A DNA stretch of 64,000 nucleotides, taken from the NCBI GenBank assembly GCA_000004985.1, contig GG738903.1; one strand, 5' to 3'. The DNA comes from Naegleria gruberi. Lineage: Eukaryota. The notes under the pieces were generated by a model. The model saw nothing but the letters and a program-made list of their open reading frames with translations. It was not told the DNA's origin and ran no database searches. The position numbers and the translations under genes were made by a program. Positions 1 through 60,493 of the stretch are shown here, in pieces (within the stretch, counting starts at the first letter, position 1; each line of letters begins with the position of its first letter).

Positions 1-111
1 ATTTAATTGGTTTCAGGAAGAAAATATTTCATCAATGCGCAATACCATAAAATATTCTTTGAATATTTCAATTGAGTGTTGGTGATATGAAAATGCAATC
101 CTCCAAAATTC

Positions 112-1068
112 TCAAATGCATAAAGATCGCTCTGCTGAACTATTCTCCAAATCACTCTTAGTTGTAAGGAGAATTACTTCTGGATTGATGGCATGAGTAC
201 GAAATTCCTCCTTTTTGTAATCAAACACGTGCTTTACATTACTGGAATAAGGATTTCCTAATAGTAAGATTGTTGAAGTAGCTCTATAAAAGGTGAATGG
301 AATGTGTAAAACTCTCTCACCAGAGTAACTATCCCACAATTCCAGCTTTAACTTTGTTTCTTGGCCAATGTTGAATTGCTTAACTGCAAAATCAATTCCA
401 ATTGGAGGTAGAATGAATGGATTTAAGGAAACAGGTGAATCTTTCATGGCACACTCGTGAAATGAGGTTTTTCCTGATTTATGTTCTCCATCCAATAAAA
501 CTTTGACCATTTGGGGAGAATTCTTTGGTGGGATAGAAGAAGCAATAGCATCAACTGTGTTGCTTTCTGATGAAGAAGTTTTGAAGAATCCAAGAAAACT
601 GTCGAATAATCCTGTTTTTGACTTTTCCTTTTTTGATTTACTTTTCGAATCTTGATACTCATTGAAAAAACCTTTCAATATTACTAATTCTTCATCTACC
701 CAACTGTCATCAACAGAAATTATTTTAGAATCTCCAGAAATTATTGCAATTTTTGCTAATTTACATGCAAATTCATAAACTTGCCTTCTCAACAAATACT
801 TGATGAACTTCCTTGCCCGAAAATCAGAAGATAGCAACAACTGATCCAACTCTTTAAATCCCGAACATTTTAATTTAAATTTTCTAATTAATATTTCATA
901 TTCTTTCCAAATTAATTCAATAGATTTTCCTCTCCACTTTTTACACACTCTCCCAAATATGAAAAACAATTCCACACTATTGAAAAAATGTAATACTTCT
1001 CCGATTATCATATCATTAGGCAATTCATGAAAAAGAGTGGAGTAAGAAATTGTTTTGCATGTTTCCAT
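112..1068 (-). CDS. F-box-like N-terminus fused to a divergent Rab-like small GTPase domain (318 aa)
   Basis: ATG at 1068, TGA at 112–114. The N-terminus, LPNDMIIGEVLHFFNSVELFFIFGRVCKKWR, is F-box-like. The C-terminal half carries Ras/Rab motifs: P-loop GEHKSGKTS; switch I PPIGIDF (Rab TIGVDF-like); G3 LELWDSYSGER (WDTAGQE-like, catalytic Gln missing); YRATSTILLLGNP; G4 TTKSDLE (NKxD-like). Confidence 0.55.
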   Translation of the reverse strand: METCKTISYSTLFHELPNDMIIGEVLHFFNSVELFFIFGRVCKKWRGKSIELIWKEYEILIRKFKLKCSGFKELDQLLLSSDFRARKFIKYLLRRQVYEFACKLAKIAIISGDSKIISVDDSWVDEELVILKGFFNEYQDSKSKSKKEKSKTGLFDSFLGFFKTSSSESNTVDAIASSIPPKNSPQMVKVLLDGEHKSGKTSFHECAMKDSPVSLNPFILPPIGIDFAVKQFNIGQETKLKLELWDSYSGERVLHIPFTFYRATSTILLLGNPYSSNVKHVFDYKKEEFRTHAINPEVILLTTKSDLENSSAERSLCI

Positions 1069-4226: not shown

Positions 4227-4299
4227 GCCCGTCTAGCTCAGTCGGTAGAGCGCAAGGCTCTTAACCTTGTGGTCGTGGGTTCGACCCCCACGGTGGGCG
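4227..4299 (+). tRNA. tRNA-Lys (anticodon CUU)
   Basis: GCCCGTCTAGCTCAGTCGGTAGAGCGCAAGGCTCTTAACCTTGTGGTCGTGGGTTCGACCCCCACGGTGGGCG folds as a cloverleaf with A and B boxes, a 7-nt anticodon loop CTCTTAA and a 7-bp acceptor stem. It is near-identical to metazoan/fungal tRNA-Lys-CTT. A T-run lies 5 nt downstream. Confidence 0.9.
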
Positions 4300-4386: not shown

Positions 4387-5025
4387 TTAAAAGAAACCCC
4401 ATGCTTTGAATTGTCTTGAAATTCTTTTGCATGCTTCCATAACTTGTGGTTTCAAATCTTTGGAAAGATCTTTTGGATTATCCAAGAATGCAAATGGAAC
4501 AGCATTTGTAACTTTATCCACAAATTGCTTCTCTGACATTGACTCTGTGAAATGTGTTAAAACAATCATTGGATTGAAAGGAAGCCCCTTTACATCTGTT
4601 TCTTTAACAGCATTTTGGAATTTGACAAATTTTTGTAAAGAAACAGAATTCCATTCACAAGCTCTACAAACAAAAATAACTGCGTCAATTCTATTATCGA
4701 GGTCAATCTTGTTTGTCAAGTAATTTTCCACTAAATTAGTTCCGGTCTTGATTCCTTGCAAGATTAATTTTAAGGTATTCAAGTCGTCTGGATTTTCGAA
4801 TGGTTTACCAGCAGAATCAAACAACAACAAGTTGGCAGACGAAACTGGAACACTTTCGTAAAGTAAGGTACCAACTTCTGCCTTTCTTCCAACATCACAT
4901 GTTTCAACCATGATATTTGGATTGAAAAATTTGAGGAGAGTGTTGATGAAGGATGATTTACCTGAATGTGGATCACCAACCACAAGAATTTTGAGAGGAA
5001 GGTTTGGGAGAGTTGTTAAAGACAT
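4387..5025 (-). CDS. P-loop GTPase, IIGP/IRG-like (first copy of a tandem pair)
   Basis: P-loop GDPHSGKSSFINTLL (IIGP-like GxxGxGKSSFIN); conserved block CDVGRKAEVGT; G3 LFDSAG. ATG at 5025 (MSLTTLPNL...); the track start at 5058 is GTG. It is a paralog of the gene at 5212–5962. Confidence 0.5.
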   Translation of the reverse strand: MSLTTLPNLPLKILVVGDPHSGKSSFINTLLKFFNPNIMVETCDVGRKAEVGTLLYESVPVSSANLLLFDSAGKPFENPDDLNTLKLILQGIKTGTNLVENYLTNKIDLDNRIDAVIFVCRACEWNSVSLQKFVKFQNAVKETDVKGLPFNPMIVLTHFTESMSEKQFVDKVTNAVPFAFLDNPKDLSKDLKPQVMEACKRISRQFKAWGFF

Positions 5026-5211
5026 TTTTTGTTGAACCAAATTGAAACGTGATGTCACGTTAAGAATATCTACTCACTGGTATTTATTTTCACGTTTCGA
5101 AAACTTTTTCGATGTGTATTTCATTACATTTTTAAGGAAAGATGCATTAGTTTCAAAGAAAGTTGGGTCAATACTTTTGCTAAAGACATATTTATTCATT
5201 TAATAACTAAT

Positions 5212-5962
5212 CTATCTACGCTTTGTAAGAACCTCTGCACTGACAACAAGGAACACAAATCCAACTACATTTTCTTTAACAATTTCTGAATTCATCCATT
5301 CAGAAAGTGACAAGTTTACACCTGTTGGCAATCCATGAATTAACTTTTGAATTTGATTCACATCATTTCCATCCATTCCCTTTTCGAATGGTTTACCAGC
5401 AGTATCAAAGATGTGATATTCATGACCATTAGAGGAACCGAGATGAACTTTTTCATAGTGAACTGTGCCAACATCTGCCTTTCGTCCAACATCACAACTT
5501 GCAACTTGGATTCGTCTATTGAAATATTTACACAATGTGTTGATTGTTGAGGATTTTCCAGAGTGTTGAGGTCCAAGCACAAGAATGTTGGTAGACTTTT
5601 TGTTAGGATTATATTTCATGTTTTCAACCTCAATTTTTTGTAACATCAAGTCAATGATTTTGTTCTTTTCTGATGGAATGTCAGTTTCCAAGTTGATATG
5701 ATTTTCAAAAAAGAAAATTCTATTTTCATGGATAAGGTTAGACAGAGATTCCTTTAATTCAATTCTTGTTGAGCTGGGGATTTTTTCATGGTTTGTAATA
5801 ATGACCAAAGGTTTTTGTTCTGATAAAGTTGAAATACGAATGTGGAAGAAACTTACTGAGTGATGATTTTTTTTCGAGCCATTGGTAAAGATTTCCAATA
5901 TTAATAACAGCGTCTGTGTCTATGACAATAGATGGACCAAAGAAAAATTCGAACAAACCCAT
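5212..5962 (-). CDS. P-loop GTPase, IIGP/IRG-like (second copy), two exons
   Basis: Model join(complement(5857..5962), complement(5212..5819)). Exon 1 starts at ATG 5962 (MGLFEFFFGPSIVIDTDAVINIGNLYQWLEKKSSL) and ends at donor GTAAGT. The intron is 37 nt (5820–5856), ending ...TATCAG. Exon 2 carries P-loop GPQHSGKSSTINTL, CDVGRKADVGT and FDTAGKPFE. Total 714 nt, in frame. The track start at 5898 is TTG. Confidence 0.5.
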
Positions 5963-12420: not shown

Positions 12421-12690
12421 ACTGAATGTTGATCAATTCCAGTTCATACACAAGAGCATAACAATTGTTGTCATGTTGTTGTTGTGGAAAGGAACGTGTG
12501 TTAGGAGGTTTCGGTAAATTGTTGAAGATTGTTATTGTGGAAAGTCTACTATTTAGAAACAAACATTTCTTGTTAAAACTGAGACAGTTGTAATCATCTC
12601 CTTCCATATGAATGGCAATCTCGCGTTTTTTAAAAAGTGGATGCACCCAACAAATATGGTAAGGAAATTCGTAAGAAAGAAAAAAAGTAG

Positions 12691-12763
12691 TGGAGATGCG
12701 GGGTATCGATCCCCGTACCTCTTCCATGCTAAAGAAGCGCTCTACCATGTGAGCTACATCCCC
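12691..12763 (-). tRNA. tRNA-Ala (anticodon AGC)
   Basis: The reverse complement reads GGGGATGTAGCTCACATGGTAGAGCGCTTCTTTAGCATGGAAGAGGTACGGGGATCGATACCCCGCATCTCCA. The anticodon loop TTAGCAT gives AGC, a G3:U70 pair is present, and the T-arm GGGGATCGATACCCC matches eukaryotic tRNA-Ala. An oligo-T terminator follows on the minus strand (aaaaaaag on plus). Confidence 0.85.
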
Positions 12764-17797: not shown

Positions 17798-19918
17798 ATG
17801 AAGACTAAATATGTTTTGGTGATTGGTGGTGTTATTTCAGGACTTGGTAAGGGTATCATTGCCAGTTCCGTCGGTAGATTGTTGAAGGAAGCTGGTCAAA
17901 ATGTTACTAGTATCAAGATTGATCCATATATTAACATTGATGCTGGTACTATGTCTCCTTATGGTATGTTTTTCATATTTACATGATGATGTTCATTCTT
18001 ATTCTTTTCTACTTGTGCTATCTTCTCATTTGCTATTTGCCTTCTTGCATCCAAACGAACACTGTCCACTCTGCTTTGTTGTCTTAACTTTCCATTGAAT
18101 GAAACTGTGTGGGTCGTTGTGAAATTTTTTTTGATGCACATTTTGTTTGTATTTTGCTCTTTCCTCAATATGACCTTGTTTGGTGCTGTGATATCTTCGT
18201 CAATAATGGGCTCACTTTTCACACAATCTTTTTCACATGTACACTCTATAGAACATGGTGAAGTTTATGTTTTAGATGATGGTGGTGAAGTTGATTTGGA
18301 TTTGGGTAACTATGAAAGATTCCTTAATTTGAGACTCCACTCTGATAACAATCTTACTACTGGTAAGATTTACAAGTCTGTCATTGAAAAGGAAAGAAGA
18401 GGTGACTACTTGGGAAAGACTGTTCAAGTTGTTCCACACGTTACTAACGAAATTCAAGAATGGATTCGTCGTGTTTCTCTCGTTACTACAGATGTTGCCA
18501 TCTTGGAAAAGCATCCATCATCTAATCCTGATGTCTGTATTATTGAATTGGGTGGTACCATTGGTGATATTGAAGGAATGCCTTTCATTGAAGCTTTGCG
18601 TCAATTCCAACAAAAGGTTGGAAGAGAAAACTTCTGTTGCATTATGGTCAGTTTGGCTCCTGCTATTACTTCAGACAGTGAACAAAAGACTAAGCCAACC
18701 CAACAATGTGTCAGAGAATTGAGAGCTGTTGGTTTCTCACCAGATTTCATTGTTGTTAGATCCGAAGAAGTTTTGCAAAAGGCTGTCAGAGAAAAGATTT
18801 TCAACTTTTGTGGTGTTGAAAGTGTTGACCACGTTATTGGTTGTCACAATATGAGAAATCTCTTGGCTGTTCCAGAATTGCTTGCTCAACAAGGACTCGG
18901 TAAATTGATTCAAAAGAGACTTGGTTTGCAACAAAAGAGTGATTTGCAATTCGATCAATTGCCAACATGGTCCACTTTTGTTTCCAAGTTCGACCAAGTT
19001 GATACTCAAAAGACTGCTACTAGAATTGCCATTGTTGGTAAATATACTGAACAACCTGATGCTTATCTTTCCATTCAAAAAGCATTCCAACACTCAAGCT
19101 TAATGTTGGGAGAAAAGATTGAACTCGTTTATATTGAAGCCAGTAATTTGGAACCAACTGAATGTACTGCTGAAGATGAAACTTCTTCTCAATCATCAGA
19201 TACTGAAGTTTACTCGACTAATTGGGATTTGCTCAAATCATGCCATGGTATTTTGGTTCCAGGTGGTTATGGTATCAGAGGTACTGAAGGTAAAATTGCT
19301 GCTGTCAAGTATGCCAGAGAAAATAATATTCCATACTTGGGTATTTGTTTGGGTATGCAATTGGCAGTTGTTGAATTTGCTAGAAACGTTCTCGGATATA
19401 GCAATGCCACTAGTGAAGAATTCAATGGTGAACAAGAAGAATCAGAAAAGAAGCACAGAAAGAAGAGAGTCGATCCAAAGAATGTCATTGTTTACATGCC
19501 AGAAATTTCCAAGACTCATTTGGGTGGTACCATGAGATTAGGTTCAAGAACTACCATCTTTGTCAATTCACCTGTTGGAGATGATAGCGAAATTGAAAAC
19601 CTTGAAGGATCTCTCTTATCTAAGTCAAAGATTTTCGAATTGTACGGTAAGAAGCCAAGAACTAATGAAAGACACAGACACAGATATGAAGTCAATCCAA
19701 ATTTGGTTCCAGAATTCACAAAGCAAGGACTTATCTTTGTTGGTCAAGATACCACCAGACAAAGACAAGAAATTTGTGAAATTTTGACTCATAACTACTT
19801 TGTTGCTGTCCAATACCATCCAGAATTCCAATCAAGCTTGGAAAATCCAAGTCCACCATTTGTTGGTTTGGTTAAATATTCTGCCGAACAAAAGAGAAAG
19901 GTAGAAACTCAACAATAA
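17798..19918 (+). CDS. CTP synthase (610 aa), two exons
   Basis: Model join(17798..17963, 18252..19918). Exon 1 is [55 protein letters not shown]. Donor G|GTATGT; 288-nt intron; acceptor TATAG. Exon 2 continues [24 protein letters not shown]... The GATase domain has GICLGMQ and HPEF. Total 1833 nt, in frame. Confidence 0.85.
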
Positions 19919-25393: not shown

Positions 25394-26738
25394 ATGTTCG
25401 ACAAGCCAACCCACACAATTTCACTGATCGGGCAAACAGGCAGTGGTAAATCAACACTTTTAGGTCAACTATTGTATCAGATGGGATATATTTTAGATGA
25501 ACAATTAGAAGAAATTTCAAAAACTGCCGATAAATTAGGAAAACCAAATTGTAAATATTCCTTCCTGGTCAACTCAACCAGAAAGGAGAGGGAATGTGCA
25601 TCAACAAGTCAATTATCATTTAGACAAGTGGAAACTAAAAATTATTTCTGTAATTTAATTGACACACCAGGTAGGAATTATTTGAATTTATTGAAACAAT
25701 CAAATTTTTGGAATATTGAAAGGAAGTGAAATTTATATGAAAAAAACAATTCGTGCCTTGGCAATTTCGAATACACTAATTGCAGTAATTGATCCGAGAG
25801 AAGTCGAATTCAAAAGGAGCATCAATCGGCTTGATGGAATATTGACACAGTACATGCTTTCTCCCATAGTTACCAGTTCACAAATTATTTGTTGTGTCAA
25901 TTTAATGGATCATCTAGAAATTAATTATTCAGAGCAAGTCTTTGTGAAAACAGTTAGTGAACTTTCAAAAATCTTGAAAAGAACAGGATCGTCTTCAGTA
26001 GATATCATTCCAATTTCTGCTTATTGTGGAGATAATATTGTGGAACTATCTGATAAAACACCATGGTATGAGGGTAAATGTCTGTTGGATGCTTTGAATT
26101 CATTGAAACCAACAGTAAATAATTTGGAACTAAGTTTAAGAATTCCAATTTTGGATGTTAAAAAAATAAGTGGAGTTGGAACAGTTGTTTATGGAAAAGT
26201 TGTAGCAGGGATACTAAAAATGGAATCAAAAATAGTATTGGCTAATTCTAATATTGAAAATGCAAGAATTGCATCTATTGAATCATTTGGAAAGCGATTG
26301 GAAGAAGCAAAATCTGGTCAACTGGTGGCTATCAACTTGCGTAATGTCTTACACAGCTCAATCAAATCAGGAGATGTAATATTAGAGGAAGGAAAATCTA
26401 CTGGTATGGTAACTCGCTTCTTTGAAGCAAATATTTTAAACATTGACCATCCAAAAGGCATTCATCCAAATTACCAACCTACAATTCAATTACAGGCTAC
26501 TCAAGCTAAATGTAAATTGGTTACTATTAAGGAAAGCTCTTGTCATAGGATTTTGAAGGAATATTTTCCCCCCTTTATTAAGAGAAACTATTTAGGAGTG
26601 GTTGAGTGTGAATTAGACAAAGCTTGTTATTTGGATACGGATGCATTTTGTAGATTTTTTATTAGAGATTTTAGGAAGGTGATAGGATTTGGCGCGATTA
26701 CTCGTGTTGGAGTTGAACAAGTTGAAAGTAATAAATAA
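25394..26738 (+). CDS. EF1A-family paralog with degenerate GTPase motifs (about 430 aa), two exons
   Basis: Model join(25394..25670, 25723..26738). N-terminus MFDKPTHTISLIGQTGSGKST aligns to EF1A [22 protein letters not shown]. G3 is DTPGG (EF1A DAPGH) and G4 is NLMD (EF1A NKMD). The intron GTAGGA...AAAG is 52 nt. Domain II (ISGVGTVVYGKVVAGILK) and domain III (FFEANILNIDHPKGIHPNYQP...; FCRFFIRDFRKVIGFGAI) are present. Confidence 0.7.
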
Positions 26739-29477: not shown

Positions 29478-32400
29478 CTAAGGTTTTCGTTTTTTGGAAC
29501 ACTCATGAGTTGTGAAAATTTGTTTCCTCAAACATTTTTCAATTTCTATGGGCAACTTATCCAAGCTTGACATTGCGTCTGCATGCAACCCCGGCCCAAT
29601 AAACGGTTCCAAGAATCTATAGATTGTTTGTTGATTCTCTTTGAATATTGTTGCATAACTGAGAATTGAAATTTTGAATAGATTATTGTCTGTCATGTGT
29701 TGAACTACTTCACGCAAGCTTTCTATCCTAAATCTAATCTTAAAACACGGTGAAAACCCACATCTTGCAACATGTCCTTGCACATCCATATAAATTTCAT
29801 CATTTTTCCTGATTCTGAAAATGCGTCTAATGAAATAGTCATAAATCATGCCAGTGACTGCATTGTCCTTGAATGTTTGAGATTTTGCTTCCAAGTCTTG
29901 AATTGAAAAATTGTCAGGCATTCTATGCACTGATTTTGGAATGAGTATGAAACCAGTGTAATTACTAATTGGGCAATATTCAATGATACTAGAGTTATAG
30001 TCAATTTTTGGTACTAATGCTCCATTGTTTTCATTGTTTTGATTATTGAGGAAGGAATTCTTGAAAATTTTCATAAAATTATTCAATACAAAAGCATGGT
30101 GAGAATATCTTTGAAAGCTCAGTATCACATTTTCTCCATTAGCAAGTTCCAATTCAATAGTTGAATAATCTTCAGATTTAGTTATTAAATAAATACCAGG
30201 TTTGACTTCTTTCATTGTAAACGGTATCAAGAATGGAAAATCAATTTGTATTGATTGCACCGTATCAAGATAATCCAAAAATGAGCTCTGATATCTTATT
30301 ATTTTGTAATATTCAGTGTCAATCATTTTCAAATATTTCATTAGGATTAGTTTGCAGACTGCATAGGAAGATTCCACTTTCAGAAGCCAAAATAATTGAT
30401 TTCCAAATAATTTTGATTTCAGACATCTATTCTTGAGAAGGTATTCAGCTAAAACTCCATATTCATTCTCGTATTTGATACAATGAACAAGAAATGGTAA
30501 AATATCAGAAAATAAATCATCTGATGTTTCTTCTAGGCATTTGATTAATACCAGTTTCGAAAATATTCCAATATTCTCGGAGAAGAGTGATATCATCTCA
30601 ATAATATTTGGTTTCTTCCATTTTCCTAATGTTTGGTTAGCTTCATAAATGATCATTGGGGTTTCGAATGAAATTCCATAAAGAAATGGAACAAAATGCG
30701 AAGGCTCATTCATATCCCACTTATTTCCTTCCAAATAAGTTTCTAAATTTGAATCACTCACATTGTTTTGAATCAAAGATAATGGATGGTTTGGTATTCT
30801 ATCAAAATCATATTCAATAATTGAATCATAAGTTGGAAACTCAATGTCTAGAGAAATTTGTGAGTTTTTTGCACCTTTTGCAAAAAGCCTGACATTCCCT
30901 TGAAGTAATTTCATATTTGAATCAAAAACTGGACATTCAAAGTGATCTTTAAAAACAACTTTTCTTGGTAATCCAGTTTCAGAACACTCTGTTTCCATAA
31001 CAAGTGAAAAATCGATGCAATAATCACATGATATTTCTGAAATTAGTGAATCAAATAAAACCTCTTCATTCCAATCTAAGCAACTCAAACTTTGAGGAAA
31101 GATATTTCTTGTTTTGTGAATTTCTTTCTTATTATTCCTTCCAACTATGGAATATTCAATTGTAAAGGAAAGAGGTTTTTGGTATTTAAATTCAAAATCC
31201 TTGAATGTGAGACCACAGAGTTGATTAATCCTCATTTTCATTCTCTCATTGATTTGGAAAGATGATACAGTATCATTTGTTTGATTGGTTTCTAATATTT
31301 TAATATCCGAAAGTGAATCAAGGAATGCAACATTACTTTCAAAATCCGCATTGGCAGTATTTACAGATTTTCCAATATCAATAAATCTAATTCTATCCCT
31401 TTTTAGCCCTATTCCACAAACAATCTCACTCTCATGATCTTTCAAACGGCTGTTATTCATGGATAGATAAATCAATGATGGCATATTCTCAATAATGGAA
31501 ATTGCTTTCGTACAAAGACGATTTTCAGAAATATTTAATCGTTTCAAATTCTTCCATTCATATTCCTCAAATATTGAATCAATACCACAGTCTGGAACGT
31601 CAAGACTGGTCAATTGTTCCAAATCACAAATATTCTTGATTAAATGAAAATCAATGAGACCAAATGTTGAAATTTTTAGTCTTTTCAGCTTGAGAGGTTT
31701 GAATTCTGTGATAGTTTCCAAGAAATCCTTCCAAATTGATTTACTTGAAATGGTAAGGCTGACTAAATTATTGAATTCGCATTTTGCAAATTCTGAAAAG
31801 TTTTCAATATTTCCTTGTTCAAGTATAAATTCTTCTAAATTATTAGAAATTCTATTAAGGTCTTTTAAATTTACACTCAATTTTCTCAAATTACTGTATT
31901 CCAAATGTGTCAATTTGGTCATAGAATATGACCAACAGTCAAATTTAGTTCTCATTTCCAAGGAATAAAGTTGTGGCTTAATGGATAGTCCAGCAACTTC
32001 TTCTACTTCGTTAACGGATGAATCTACTAACAAATTTACCAAATTAGGCAAACTCATTTTACTATTCATCAATTTATAATATTCTTGGTTATCAATTATT
32101 GATTCCATAATATCCAAAGATTTCAATTTGTAAAAATGTGAAATACTATTAAATTTAAATCCTTCCCTATCACGACCTTGAATATCTCTAATTGTTAAAT
32201 GCTCCAAATTATGCACAAGTCTTGGGGAATTTTTCATAATTTCAAGATCGCTATTCGAAAATGGTCCCCAAATATTCGAAATATTATAAAAATTAATTGA
32301 ATTGTTTTTAATTGCAATGAGGAAATGATTCACTGCTGGATCAACATAGGCTCCCTGGGAGAAACACATTTTCCTACTGGCCAAGATTTTAACTTGAATT

Positions 32401-32531
32401 TTGTTCAGAGTTGATGCTAACCTCCATTTCGAACAAACTAAGGAAATTATTCGAATGATGAATTTTGAATGAAGGAAGGAAAATATTTCCACCAACATTT
32501 CGGATGGAATGTCGTTTAGCTTTTCATACAT
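29478..32531 (-). CDS. F-box / LRR protein fused to a PI3K-type helical (accessory) and divergent catalytic-like region (1017 aa)
   Basis: ATG at 32531. N-terminal F-box: IPSEMLVEIFSFLHSKFIIRIISLVCSKWRLAS. The middle holds L..L.L..C.I-type LRRs. The C-terminal third contains LPFLVHCIKYENEYGVLAEYLLKNRCLKSKLFGNQLFWLLKVE, which matches the PI3K accessory/helical signature (VQALKYE...LA.FLL.RAL.N..IGH.FFW.LRSE). A region of the size expected for the catalytic domain follows, with no intact DRH/DFG motifs. Confidence 0.55.
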   Translation of the reverse strand: MYEKLNDIPSEMLVEIFSFLHSKFIIRIISLVCSKWRLASTLNKIQVKILASRKMCFSQGAYVDPAVNHFLIAIKNNSINFYNISNIWGPFSNSDLEIMKNSPRLVHNLEHLTIRDIQGRDREGFKFNSISHFYKLKSLDIMESIIDNQEYYKLMNSKMSLPNLVNLLVDSSVNEVEEVAGLSIKPQLYSLEMRTKFDCWSYSMTKLTHLEYSNLRKLSVNLKDLNRISNNLEEFILEQGNIENFSEFAKCEFNNLVSLTISSKSIWKDFLETITEFKPLKLKRLKISTFGLIDFHLIKNICDLEQLTSLDVPDCGIDSIFEEYEWKNLKRLNISENRLCTKAISIIENMPSLIYLSMNNSRLKDHESEIVCGIGLKRDRIRFIDIGKSVNTANADFESNVAFLDSLSDIKILETNQTNDTVSSFQINERMKMRINQLCGLTFKDFEFKYQKPLSFTIEYSIVGRNNKKEIHKTRNIFPQSLSCLDWNEEVLFDSLISEISCDYCIDFSLVMETECSETGLPRKVVFKDHFECPVFDSNMKLLQGNVRLFAKGAKNSQISLDIEFPTYDSIIEYDFDRIPNHPLSLIQNNVSDSNLETYLEGNKWDMNEPSHFVPFLYGISFETPMIIYEANQTLGKWKKPNIIEMISLFSENIGIFSKLVLIKCLEETSDDLFSDILPFLVHCIKYENEYGVLAEYLLKNRCLKSKLFGNQLFWLLKVESSYAVCKLILMKYLKMIDTEYYKIIRYQSSFLDYLDTVQSIQIDFPFLIPFTMKEVKPGIYLITKSEDYSTIELELANGENVILSFQRYSHHAFVLNNFMKIFKNSFLNNQNNENNGALVPKIDYNSSIIEYCPISNYTGFILIPKSVHRMPDNFSIQDLEAKSQTFKDNAVTGMIYDYFIRRIFRIRKNDEIYMDVQGHVARCGFSPCFKIRFRIESLREVVQHMTDNNLFKISILSYATIFKENQQTIYRFLEPFIGPGLHADAMSSLDKLPIEIEKCLRKQIFTTHECSKKRKP

Positions 32532-52417: not shown

Positions 52418-53722
52418 ATGAAGAAGCGAATGAGAGAAGAATTTGATCGTAATTCAATCATGATGGAAGGAAAGGAGTACGATAACTTATTCCCCGATGA
52501 TATTTGTGAAGAAATTATGCAATGGCTAGCTTGGAAAGAAGTTTTATTGAATTGTTGCCTAATTTCCAAGCAATGGTTTACAATTGCAAAATCAAGATAT
52601 AGAGCAAGTATTCAACTCACATATGGTCAAGAAAAATTATGGCTATGTTTTATTAAAGAGCAGCAGGAAGGAATTTCTCGTATATTTAATATTGGTGTTG
52701 ATTCTTTCAGAGTGGTGGGAAGTTACTTTATAGATAGCATTAATGCAGAGATTATTAGCAAATCGTTTCCTAATTTGAAGCGATTGGAAATTGGTGATAA
52801 CCAACAATTTGGAGATTGTGGAGCAGAGTCGATAAGTAAGATTAAGACTTTGACGAGCTTGAATGTTTTAGATTGTGGAATAACTTCAAAAGGAGCAGAA
52901 TTTATTGGATTGTTAAACGGGCTGACCTATCTTAATATTGGAAATAACAAGATTATGGATAGTGGAATGAAATTTATTGGAAAATTGAGTTCACTGAATG
53001 TTTTGCAGATTGGTAGTACTGAGATAACTAGTGAGAGTTTTAAATTGGTGGGCTGTATGAAGGGATTAACATCTCTTTCTATTTATTCAAATCCAGTCAC
53101 AATAGAAGATGCAAAATCCATAAGCTCAATACACGGCCTTAAATCTCTAAATATCAGCAATACAGGAATTTCTGTGGAAGGATTGAAATATTTAAGTGCA
53201 CTGACTTTACTAACGAACTTGTCTTTGGCCAAGAATAACATTACAAATGAAGGGCTTTTATCAATATCCCAAATGAAGCAAATAACTAAACTCTTTCTTC
53301 AACATAATGTAATAGACTGTGATGGAGCTCAATTATTAAGTACAATGACCAATTTGAGATTATTAAATATTAGTCAAACCAAAATCACCACTGAAGGAAT
53401 CAAGCACATTACCTCCTTGAAGAACATTACATCTTTGAATATTTCGATTAATCAGTTAAATGATGAAGCTTTAAAATTAGTTAGTTCAATGAATCAATTG
53501 ACCAATCTCAGTACACACAATAACAAGCTAACCAGCGAAGGCGCAAAACATATAAGCCAATTGAATAATCTAACAGAACTCAACATTTCCTCAAATCCTG
53601 TAAGAATCGAAGGTGCCAACTATTTAAATCAAATGACAACACTCAAAATAATTAATGTTTCAAACTGTAGAACTGGAATCTTCCAATGGAACAATAATAT
53701 TGATCTACAATTTGATGACTAG
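52418..53722 (+). CDS. F-box-like / RNI-type leucine-rich-repeat protein (434 aa)
   Basis: ATG at 52418. F-box-like FPDDICEEIMQWLAWKEVLLNCCLISKQWFTIA, followed by about 14 LRRs of the form L..L..L.I..N.I..EGAK.IS. Confidence 0.6.
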   Translation: MKKRMREEFDRNSIMMEGKEYDNLFPDDICEEIMQWLAWKEVLLNCCLISKQWFTIAKSRYRASIQLTYGQEKLWLCFIKEQQEGISRIFNIGVDSFRVVGSYFIDSINAEIISKSFPNLKRLEIGDNQQFGDCGAESISKIKTLTSLNVLDCGITSKGAEFIGLLNGLTYLNIGNNKIMDSGMKFIGKLSSLNVLQIGSTEITSESFKLVGCMKGLTSLSIYSNPVTIEDAKSISSIHGLKSLNISNTGISVEGLKYLSALTLLTNLSLAKNNITNEGLLSISQMKQITKLFLQHNVIDCDGAQLLSTMTNLRLLNISQTKITTEGIKHITSLKNITSLNISINQLNDEALKLVSSMNQLTNLSTHNNKLTSEGAKHISQLNNLTELNISSNPVRIEGANYLNQMTTLKIINVSNCRTGIFQWNNNIDLQFDD

Positions 53723-55180: not shown

Positions 55181-56131
55181 TTGAATGATTTGAAACTTTT
55201 TAAAAAAATGATAAAACGAACAATTGAAACTCTTGTTGATGAAGCAAATGTTGGATCTGAAACAAAAAAGACGAAACTCACTCATGAAGTTTTCAATGAT
55301 GATATTCTGGGTGAAATTTTATCCTTCCATGATGATTTTAAATTCATTGTATTGAATTGTGCATTAGTTTCGAAACAGTGGTTGAATGTCATATTGGAAA
55401 GATCAAGACTTTGTTTTCGATGTTATAGTAACAATTTGAAAGGTCGATTTTTACAAAATATTGCAACTTTGGTGGTGAGATTTGGAACTGTCGAATTTGA
55501 TTATCAAATACTTGGTCTGATGAAACGTTTATCACATCTTCGAGCTTGTTTTAATGATATTGGTGTTGAAGGGGCTAAACACATCAGTCAATTGAAACAA
55601 TTAACTTTTCTTGGAGTGAGTGGTAATTTTGTTGGAGTGGAAGGAGCCAAATACATTAGTCAATTGAAACAATTGACAAACCTAGATATTTGTTTTAATA
55701 ATATTGGAGATGAGGGAGCAAAACACATTAGTGAATTGAAACAATTGAAAAATCTCAAAATTGGAAACAATTACATTGGTGTTGAAGGTGCCAAATATAT
55801 TAGTCAACTGAAACATGTAACCAAGCTTTCTATTAGTTATAACAATGTCAGAGTTGAGGGGGTTAAATACATTAGTGAAATGAAACAATTAACTGATCTT
55901 AACATTGGTGAGAATGTAATTGGTGATGAAGGAGCTAAACATATTAAGAAATTGAATCAATTGACTAGATTAAGTATTTCAGGTGTTGAAATAAGTGAAG
56001 CAGGAGCTAAATACATTTGTGAAATGAAACAATTAACACAGCTCAATATTAAGAATAATAACATTGGCAAAATAGGCAAGGAATATATCTGTACTGAACT
56101 GAAATATTTAATTGATCTTGAAGTGTACTGA
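55181..56131 (+). CDS. F-box-like / RNI-type LRR protein (316 aa), paralog of 52418–53722
   Basis: ATG at 55181, only 16 nt after the upstream stop. Repeats are NNIGDEGAKHISELKQLKNLKIGNNYIGVEGAKYISQLK... Confidence 0.6.
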   Translation: MNDLKLFKKMIKRTIETLVDEANVGSETKKTKLTHEVFNDDILGEILSFHDDFKFIVLNCALVSKQWLNVILERSRLCFRCYSNNLKGRFLQNIATLVVRFGTVEFDYQILGLMKRLSHLRACFNDIGVEGAKHISQLKQLTFLGVSGNFVGVEGAKYISQLKQLTNLDICFNNIGDEGAKHISELKQLKNLKIGNNYIGVEGAKYISQLKHVTKLSISYNNVRVEGVKYISEMKQLTDLNIGENVIGDEGAKHIKKLNQLTRLSISGVEISEAGAKYICEMKQLTQLNIKNNNIGKIGKEYICTELKYLIDLEVY

Positions 56132-60422: not shown

Positions 60423-60493
60423 TGCATTAGCCGGGAGTCGAACCCGGGTCACCAGCTTGGAAGGCTGGTATGATACCGTTACACTACTAATGC
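60423..60493 (-). tRNA. tRNA-Gly (anticodon UCC)
   Basis: The reverse complement reads GCATTAGTAGTGTAACGGTATCATACCAGCCTTCCAAGCTGGTGACCCGGGTTCGACTCCCGGCTAATGCA. The anticodon loop CTTCCAA gives TCC, and the T-arm GGGTTCGACTCCC is canonical. It is near-identical to eukaryotic tRNA-Gly-TCC. A T-run follows on the minus strand. Confidence 0.9.

Follow-up and report, generated by a model that had tools for sequence, protein, structure and literature searches.

The best-studied functional analogue of the proteins discussed here is Rab40, a Rab whose C-terminal SOCS box brings in Cullin5 (PMC8129794, PMC10509765). The likeness lies in the pairing of a Rab-type G domain with an adaptor motif for a cullin-RING ligase, so that the GTPase takes the part of the substrate-recognition subunit of an E3. 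The adaptor motifs differ: Rab40 has a C-terminal SOCS box and Cul5, whereas the Naegleria family has an N-terminal F-box and, presumably, Skp1/Cul1. Rab40 also keeps the canonical G motifs and is prenylated, whereas the Naegleria family has neither the catalytic Gln nor a prenylation motif. In RhoBTB, an atypical small-GTPase domain is likewise joined to a cullin-adaptor domain, and its GTPase domain is non-hydrolysing, but the components are a BTB domain with Cul3 and a Rho-family G domain rather than an F-box with Cul1 and a Rab-like one. RhoBTB, an atypical Rho GTPase that serves as a Cul3 adaptor through its fused BTB domains, is among the citations of PMC8296547 (as PMC4931677). A third system, TbFRP of the Euglenozoa, combines a FYVE domain with an F-box plus a Ras-like GTPase; its authors tie the F-box to rapid protein turnover and did not find an orthologue in N. 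gruberi (PMC3593210). TbFRP resembles the Naegleria proteins by architecture, in that its F-box lies upstream of a Rab-related GTPase domain and it comes from a protist of the same supergroup, but it has a PI3P-binding FYVE domain at its N-terminus, which was not detected in the open reading frame (ORF) studied here. Neither a SOCS box nor a BTB or FYVE domain was found in this 318-aa ORF by Pfam at E ≤ 10.

The family itself has been described. Herman et al. 2021 (BMC Biol; PMC8296547, Additional File 4) distinguish three clades of Rab-like genes that are specific to Naegleria and extended at the N-terminus by an F-box. In some of their members mutations disrupt the coding sequence, and the authors read this as "birth-and-death evolution". 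For the F-box-Rab-like genes they propose "GTPase-dependent ubiquitination", and they guess at a role "at the organism-environment interface". The combination of F-box and Rab-like domain, which the first-pass annotation of this locus had called unusual, is unusual among eukaryotes, but it is recurrent in Naegleria and already published.

The locus lies in a window of 64,000 nucleotides of nuclear DNA from Naegleria gruberi (GenBank assembly GCA_000004985.1, contig GG738903.1), by which we mean the whole stretch of DNA that was analyzed. The ORF in which a fused F-box and Rab-like GTPase had been noticed is present, as are all the motif strings quoted from it. Its features, together with those that lie outside its frame, are as follows.

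3..1068, minus strand: the whole gene NAEGRDRAFT_73202, approximately 356-358 aa, with a frame break close to the 3' end (family homology).
112..1068, minus strand: ORF A, 318 aa, from ATG to TGA (ORF list).
916..1023, minus strand: F-box, aa 16-51, LPNDMIIGEVLHFFNSVELFFIFGRVCKKWRGKSIE (Pfam, family profiles, AF2).
649..915, minus strand: family-specific helical region, aa 52-140, with the motifs RKFIKYLLRRQVYEFA and W..EL..LKGYF..F.D (alignment, AF2).
514..648, minus strand: Ser/Lys-rich linker, probably disordered, aa 141-185 (AF2, alignment).
136..513, minus strand: in-frame part of the Rab-like G domain, aa 186-311, from beta1 to the G4 motif (Pfam, PDB, Foldseek).
463..489, minus strand: G1 motif or P-loop GEHKSGKTS, aa 194-202, in which GxxxxGK[ST] is kept (family blocks).
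388..408, minus strand: switch I PPIGIDF, aa 221-227, the conserved Thr replaced by Pro (HMMER alignment to Rab3D and Sec4).
313..336, minus strand: G3 motif and switch II WDSYSGER, aa 245-252 (HMMER alignment to Rabs).
151..162, minus strand: G4 motif TKSD, aa 303-306, in which [NT]KxD is kept and D306 is invariant across the family (alignment).
124..138, minus strand: interval holding the frame break (C-terminal family HMM, codon positions).
6..137, minus strand: C-terminal part of the G domain in a second frame (ORF 3..155), QQSDLYAFENFGGLHFHITNTQLKYSKNILWYCALMKYFLPETN, with a stop at 3..5 (family HMM).
75..89, minus strand: G5 position HITNT (ETSAK in Rabs), outside the frame of the 318-aa ORF (alignment).

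An exhaustive HMMER search and a cluster look-up showed that aa 187-318 of ORF 112..1068 are 100% identical to the 132-aa N. gruberi protein XP_002671737.1 / D2VW03. The locus is almost certainly the gene NAEGRDRAFT_73202, and its membership of the family is equally secure. Its RefSeq model, XP_002671737.1, begins at M187 and covers the GTPase fragment alone. Table S8 of PMC8296547 lists the identical 318-aa sequence as a corrected model under XP_002671737.1*, class Rab, ending ...SLCI*; the F-box column is blank for this entry, while its paralogues are flagged F-box. The fusion, the family and the 318-aa model are therefore already known from this source. Two things are new here: the C-terminal ~40 residues survive in a second frame, and the aligned motifs, read anew, point to further losses in switch I and in DxxG.

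We read NAEGRDRAFT_73202 as a recently inactivated copy in a known birth-and-death family of presumed SCF adaptors, with a probability of about 0.6. By chance, a 318-codon open frame at 33% GC would have a probability of ~2e-11. Since all 318 codons are open, either the inactivation would be very recent or the truncated protein would still be under selection. The neighbors of the gene are eukaryotic, densely packed on both strands, at 33% GC, and include ORFs for an actin-fragmin kinase, RCC1, Kelch, NHL, C2 and LRR proteins, a dual-specificity phosphatase, CTP synthase and a dynamin-family GTPase; all three standard stops are used by the other ORFs of the window. A scan of viral contigs gave no matches. 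The low GC content and the dense ORFs had first suggested a giant virus or a bacterium as the source, but this was rejected in view of the gene content and the exact match to N. gruberi.

The same fusion is found in at least 13 homologues, which match the ORF along its whole length and come from N. gruberi, N. fowleri and environmental contigs. They include N. gruberi XP_002677004.1, XP_002680716.1 and XP_002676638.1 and N. fowleri XP_044563075.1, and one of the environmental homologues lies in a single exon of a JGI metagenome contig. Homologue P0002 matches at 7.6e-48 over aa 10-310 in HMMER, which also aligned P0003, P0004, P0008, P0018 and others. Nearest to the ORF among the paralogues are XP_002670359.1, at 43% identity, and XP_002677004.1, at 41%. 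Exhaustive HMMER was required for this, as a word-indexed search for homologues returned 0 proteins from the single sequence and 2 from the family alignment. Four proteins matched by HMMER in multiple stretches (P0006, P0009, P0012 and P0019) were set aside as tandem multi-Rab proteins that have no F-box and do not belong with this architecture. From N to C terminus, the homologues have in common an F-box-like segment (LPxE(I/L)xxEIxxxxxxx(E/D)LIFxxxxVCKxWR), a family-specific helical region (RxFxKxLLRxxVxExA ... W..EL..LKxYFxxFxD), a low-complexity, Ser-rich linker of variable length and a Rab-like domain. The family is Naegleria-specific and rapidly expanding, with a divergent, non-prenylated Rab-like G domain.

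The F-box of this copy is weak when considered alone. The segment LPNDMIIGEVLHFFNSVELFFIFGRVCKKWR occupies aa 16-46 of the ORF, and the family alignment shows a one-residue insertion in the first F-box helix relative to most paralogues. Profile searches for the F-box and the Ras family, proposed in the first-pass annotation as a check, gave a divided result for the single sequence: Ras and Roc passed their cut-offs, while the F-box profile PF00646 scored 13.1 bits on the full 318-aa ORF (E=0.099), below its cut-off of 20.5, and reached E=0.024 on the N-terminal fragment. At family level the picture is clearer, with matches at E ≤ 0.01 to F-box in 9 of 14 members (best 2.6e-7) and to F-box-like also in 9 of 14; Ras matches 13 of 14. 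Two of the five members that lack an F-box match are N-terminally truncated public models. A family profile of the N-terminal 140 residues, compared with the PDB, matched FBXL17 (2.6e-5) and FBH1 (5.8e-5), followed by FBXO6, FBXO44, FBXW7, KDM2B and Skp2, and nearly all of its matches are F-box proteins. Because homologues match F-box models and the family profile matches F-box proteins, we take the predicted F-box of NAEGRDRAFT_73202 to be supported by homology, sub-threshold as it is in its own sequence.

We modeled the protein with AF2 from the family alignment (mean pLDDT 66, pTM 0.59), a single-sequence AlphaFold model being uninformative (pLDDT 36). The model places F-box helices at residues 18-27, 31-38 and 43-63 with moderate confidence (pLDDT 53-73); a Foldseek search with the whole model was dominated by the Rab domain. 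The region that follows, aa 52-140, has no Pfam match, and helices are modeled in the middle of the protein at residues 71-79, 83-111 and 121-139 with pLDDT of about 70-80. Residues 138-180 fall below pLDDT 50, and the length of the linker differs among family members.

The 318-aa ORF is an incomplete gene, its G domain being interrupted before the G5 region. The Pfam Ras match in the ORF stops at profile position 119 of 162, and the final ~40 G-domain residues (YAFENFGGLHFHITNT…WYCALMKYFL) are encoded in another frame, ORF 3..155. In the intact paralogue P0002 this region reads ...ADKYAFENFGGLHLDITNTNIEEPSAIIWYCAILKYLL and aligns with alpha4-beta6 of Rab8A (...LALDYGIKF). We scored the three frames with a C-terminal family HMM made from 13 homologues, with the window sequence left out. 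Positions 1-15 of this HMM match in the ORF frame (12.7 bits) and positions 20-62 in the second frame (58.4 bits, E=8.5e-20), and the third frame gives no match. The ORF frame leaves the family match after ...LENSS(AERS), and the other frame joins it at (QQS)DLYAF. The C-terminal signature of the family, ...AFENFGG.L..EITNT....WY..L.KYLL, is present, but in the second frame. That the assembly contains a frame break within 124..138 is certain.

Repairing the frame raises the score against the full-family HMM from 244.4 bits for the unmodified ORF to 299.8-305.0 bits for the frame-repaired composites, a gain of 55-60 bits. Reading through the TGA, as an alternative genetic code would have it, was rejected because it brings no such gain (244.8 bits). 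The second-frame tail leaves the Pfam Ras score flat (26.9 against 26.8 bits), so the divergent C-terminus is visible to the family HMM only and not to the generic profile. The top-scoring repair is a 5-nt insertion that supplies a second copy of GATCT and yields a gap-free alignment of SSAERSDLYAF with the family sequence FSNEQADQFAF; other repairs score 3-5 bits below it, a difference that does not separate a 5-nt deletion from a 1- or 2-nt error. A deletion by slippage seems to fit the break better than an error in base calling does. Because the best repair restores a GATCT repeat with a gap-free match, we favor a real mutation over a base-calling slip and regard an assembly error as the less probable origin of the break. 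The break rests on one public assembly. An exact-sequence look-up of contigs encoding the ORF, P0001 or P0002 gave no independent copy of the locus, and a gapped DNA pattern spanning the break had 0 matches in metagenome contigs.

The alternative that survives best, though we think it unlikely, is that the gene is intact and the break an error of the draft assembly. The product would then be an F-box-Rab-like pseudoGTPase of 356-358 aa, presumably an SCF adaptor with a non-hydrolysing binding domain like its paralogues. Both frames are indeed open and strongly family-like up to the junction, no stop occurs among the other 318 codons, and a similar degeneracy of the switch motifs is seen in apparently intact paralogues. 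However, the best repair takes 5 nt and not 1, and even the repaired protein is 3 residues shorter than the closest paralogues between TKSD and YAF. The curators of the family also report truly disrupted members, and end their own model of this gene at the same ...SLCI* (PMC8296547).

The G domain is recognizably that of a Rab. At aa 189-310, Pfam detects a Ras/Roc-type domain (Roc 33.7 bits, cut-off 27; Ras 26.8 bits, cut-off 21.6), and the top phmmer matches in the PDB are all Rabs: Rab3D (1.1e-10), Sec4 (3.7e-9) and then Rab3A. In the Foldseek search the modeled G domain superposed on Rab35, Rab1a and Rab3A at E of about 2-5e-8 over ~125 aligned columns, with target-normalized TM-scores of ~0.6. 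The presence of an F-box and a Rab-type G domain in one ORF, as first noticed, is upheld by these matches for the G domain and by the homologues for the F-box.

The motifs of this domain are kept to different degrees. G1 and G4 are kept here and in most paralogues. In switch I, canonical Rabs have TIGIDF and most paralogues TIG(I/V)DF with the Thr kept, against PPIGIDF here. The G3 motif WDSYSGER pairs residue by residue with WDTAGQER, which puts S249 at the position of the DxxG Gly and G250 at that of the catalytic Gln; most paralogues read WDQCGPERF, with the Gly kept and the catalytic Gln replaced by Pro. At the G5 position the family consensus is EITNT, the SAK being lost, and residue matches beyond GLH/GIKF were judged by eye. 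We compared the RabF motifs by eye with the reference set IGVDF, KLQIWDTAGQE, RFRSIT, YYRGA and LVYDIT. NAEGRDRAFT_73202 keeps IGIDF and has degenerate forms of the others (KLELWDSYSGE, RVLHIP, FYRAT and LLLGNPY), and the paralogues retain RFRSIT and YYRGA. No prenylation motif (CC, CxC or CaaX) was found at the end of the ORF (...SLCI), of the repaired frame (...FLPETN) or of the paralogues (...KYLLS or similar). Degenerate switch motifs also occur in apparently intact paralogues (P0005, with PPI and WESGGER, and P0007, P0008, P0026 and P0029), and several family members, for instance P0029, have lost the P-loop itself. Loss of these motifs is therefore by itself no proof of decay. Because most members lack the catalytic Gln, the family G domains look like slow or non-hydrolysing Rab-like binding modules rather than fast switches.

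Ras-like GTPases work by an established "loaded spring" mechanism, in which the gamma-phosphate is sensed and held by two residues, the Thr of switch I and the Gly of DxxG. Both are lost in NAEGRDRAFT_73202, so a GTP-specific state is not expected, and the sequence predicts a non-switching pseudoGTPase that cannot attain a GTP-specific conformation. The first-pass annotation had instead seen a Q-to-S change and predicted from it a constitutively GTP-locked or non-cycling GTPase. The alignment gives another reading, in which the Gln has become Gly and the Ser stands where the DxxG Gly should be. A GTP lock is therefore not supported, and the frame also breaks before G5. A complete F-box-Rab fusion that acts as a GTP-locked SCF substrate receptor would agree with the true absence of the catalytic Gln and with an F-box that is real at family level. 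We hold it to be very improbable, because switch I has Pro for Thr in addition to the substitutions in G3, because structural knowledge of the Ras superfamily indicates that the GTP-bound conformation could not be stabilized, and because the ORF lacks the G5/alpha5 part of the domain.

That the F-box region and the GTPase region might belong to different genes had been raised from the outset, and the public 132-aa model starting at M187 would agree with two separate genes or with a gene made of the GTPase part alone. The frame is, however, unbroken from M1, and an N-terminal alignment gives 40% identity to P0002 over the first 185 residues. The same order is found in 13 homologues, including single-exon environmental copies, and the curated model in PMC8296547 unites both parts. 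We treat F-box region and G domain as one gene and give the separation hardly any credence. Weakest of all is a deliberate joining of the two frames, by programmed +1 ribosomal frameshifting or a very short intron: a 16-nt GT..AG at 140..155 does connect the frames arithmetically, but we rejected it as an intron because splicing it would remove the invariant Asp of TKSD and because it is implausibly short (Naegleria spliceosomal introns are far longer than 16 nt), the ~35-nt interval has no other GT..AG and leaves no space for an intron, no known frameshift signal is present, and the paralogues require no such event.

If NAEGRDRAFT_73202 is a recently inactivated member of the family, its product, if any, would be an F-box protein with a truncated pseudoGTPase unable to switch. 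In the intact members, the F-box would dock the protein onto Skp1/Cul1. The Rab-like domain could then serve an SCF ubiquitin ligase as the module that binds its targets; alternatively, docking could make the GTPase itself a substrate for turnover. Recruitment of an SCF ligase through the F-box, suggested in the first-pass annotation, is a reasonable idea that the authors of PMC8296547 raise as well. As we read it from domain content, we put an SCF-adaptor function of the family at even odds.

A far more speculative possibility, and in our view a long shot, is that these proteins are "Rab decoys", whose dead Rab-like domains would mimic host Rabs and capture effectors with which intracellular bacteria, for example Legionella-like parasites of amoebae, bind Rabs. 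Once captured, an effector would be passed on by the F-box for ubiquitination through SCF. Turnover by birth and death would then be the footprint of an arms race, and the broken NAEGRDRAFT_73202 a casualty of it. This speculation is compatible with the loss of catalytic residues across the family, the missing prenylation, the expansion within the lineage and the role "at the organism-environment interface" that has been guessed at in print.

For the annotation of N. gruberi, two corrections follow. RefSeq XP_002671737.1 is too short at its 5' end, and the corrected model in print lacks ~40 residues at its 3' end because of the frame break. NAEGRDRAFT_73202 is probably a pseudogene and should probably be flagged as disrupted. 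As a discovery the locus is of small value, since Herman et al. 2021 already give the fusion, the family and the 318-aa model in their supplement, and intact paralogues such as XP_002677004.1 are preferable subjects for study. F-box-GTPase fusions are frequent in Naegleria, where they also involve Rho, Ran and G-alpha domains. They would suit the question of whether cullin ligases reuse small-GTPase folds as substrate receptors, in the manner of Rab40 and RhoBTB.

The public RefSeq/JGI model of the Naegleria F-box-Rab-like gene NAEGRDRAFT_73202 (XP_002671737.1, 132 aa; window 112..510, - strand) starts at the internal Met187 and therefore lacks both the F-box and the protein's helical half.

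Besides this protein, the window encodes a second unusual F-box fusion, in an ORF of 1017 aa:

window 29478..32531, - strand, F-box-like domain, LRR match and PI3K accessory (PIK) helical domain

The N-terminal F-box-like domain (aa 5-39) scored 26.3 bits, above the cut-off, and the PIK domain spans aa 607-723. The LRR match is weak, and no kinase catalytic domain was detected within the ORF.

Two LRR proteins were also found:

window 55181..56131, + strand, LRR protein 1
window 52418..53722, + strand, LRR protein 2

At its N-terminus, LRR protein 1 is similar to the F-box segment of the F-box-Rab-like protein (tblastn E=0.15), and it therefore probably belongs to the FBXL-type F-box/LRR proteins.

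For two other ORFs, an upstream exon is probable given where their profile matches begin:

window 18095..19918, + strand, CTP synthase, match from profile position 49
window 25716..26738, + strand, eEF1A/EF-Tu-like, GTP_EFTU match from position 78

Introns would thus occur in this otherwise intron-poor stretch. Two adjoining ORFs, each with a partial MMR_HSR1/IIGP-like GTPase match, are probably a single gene, interrupted either by an intron or by a further break in the frame:

window 4387..5058, - strand, piece 1
window 5212..5898, - strand, piece 2

Interspersed among the protein-coding genes are three tRNA genes:

window 4227..4299, + strand, Lys-CTT
window 12690..12763, - strand, Ala-AGC
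window 60423..60493, - strand, Gly-TCC

A homologue, P0003, is encoded on the environmental contig L001 (JGI metagenome 3300002220):

L001 2130..3212, + strand, 360 aa, F-box and Ras, single exon

PH-domain and rhomboid genes adjoin it, and the contig is eukaryote-like and densely packed with genes. The F-box-Rab-like family therefore also occurs in uncultured organisms, which are presumably heterolobosean.
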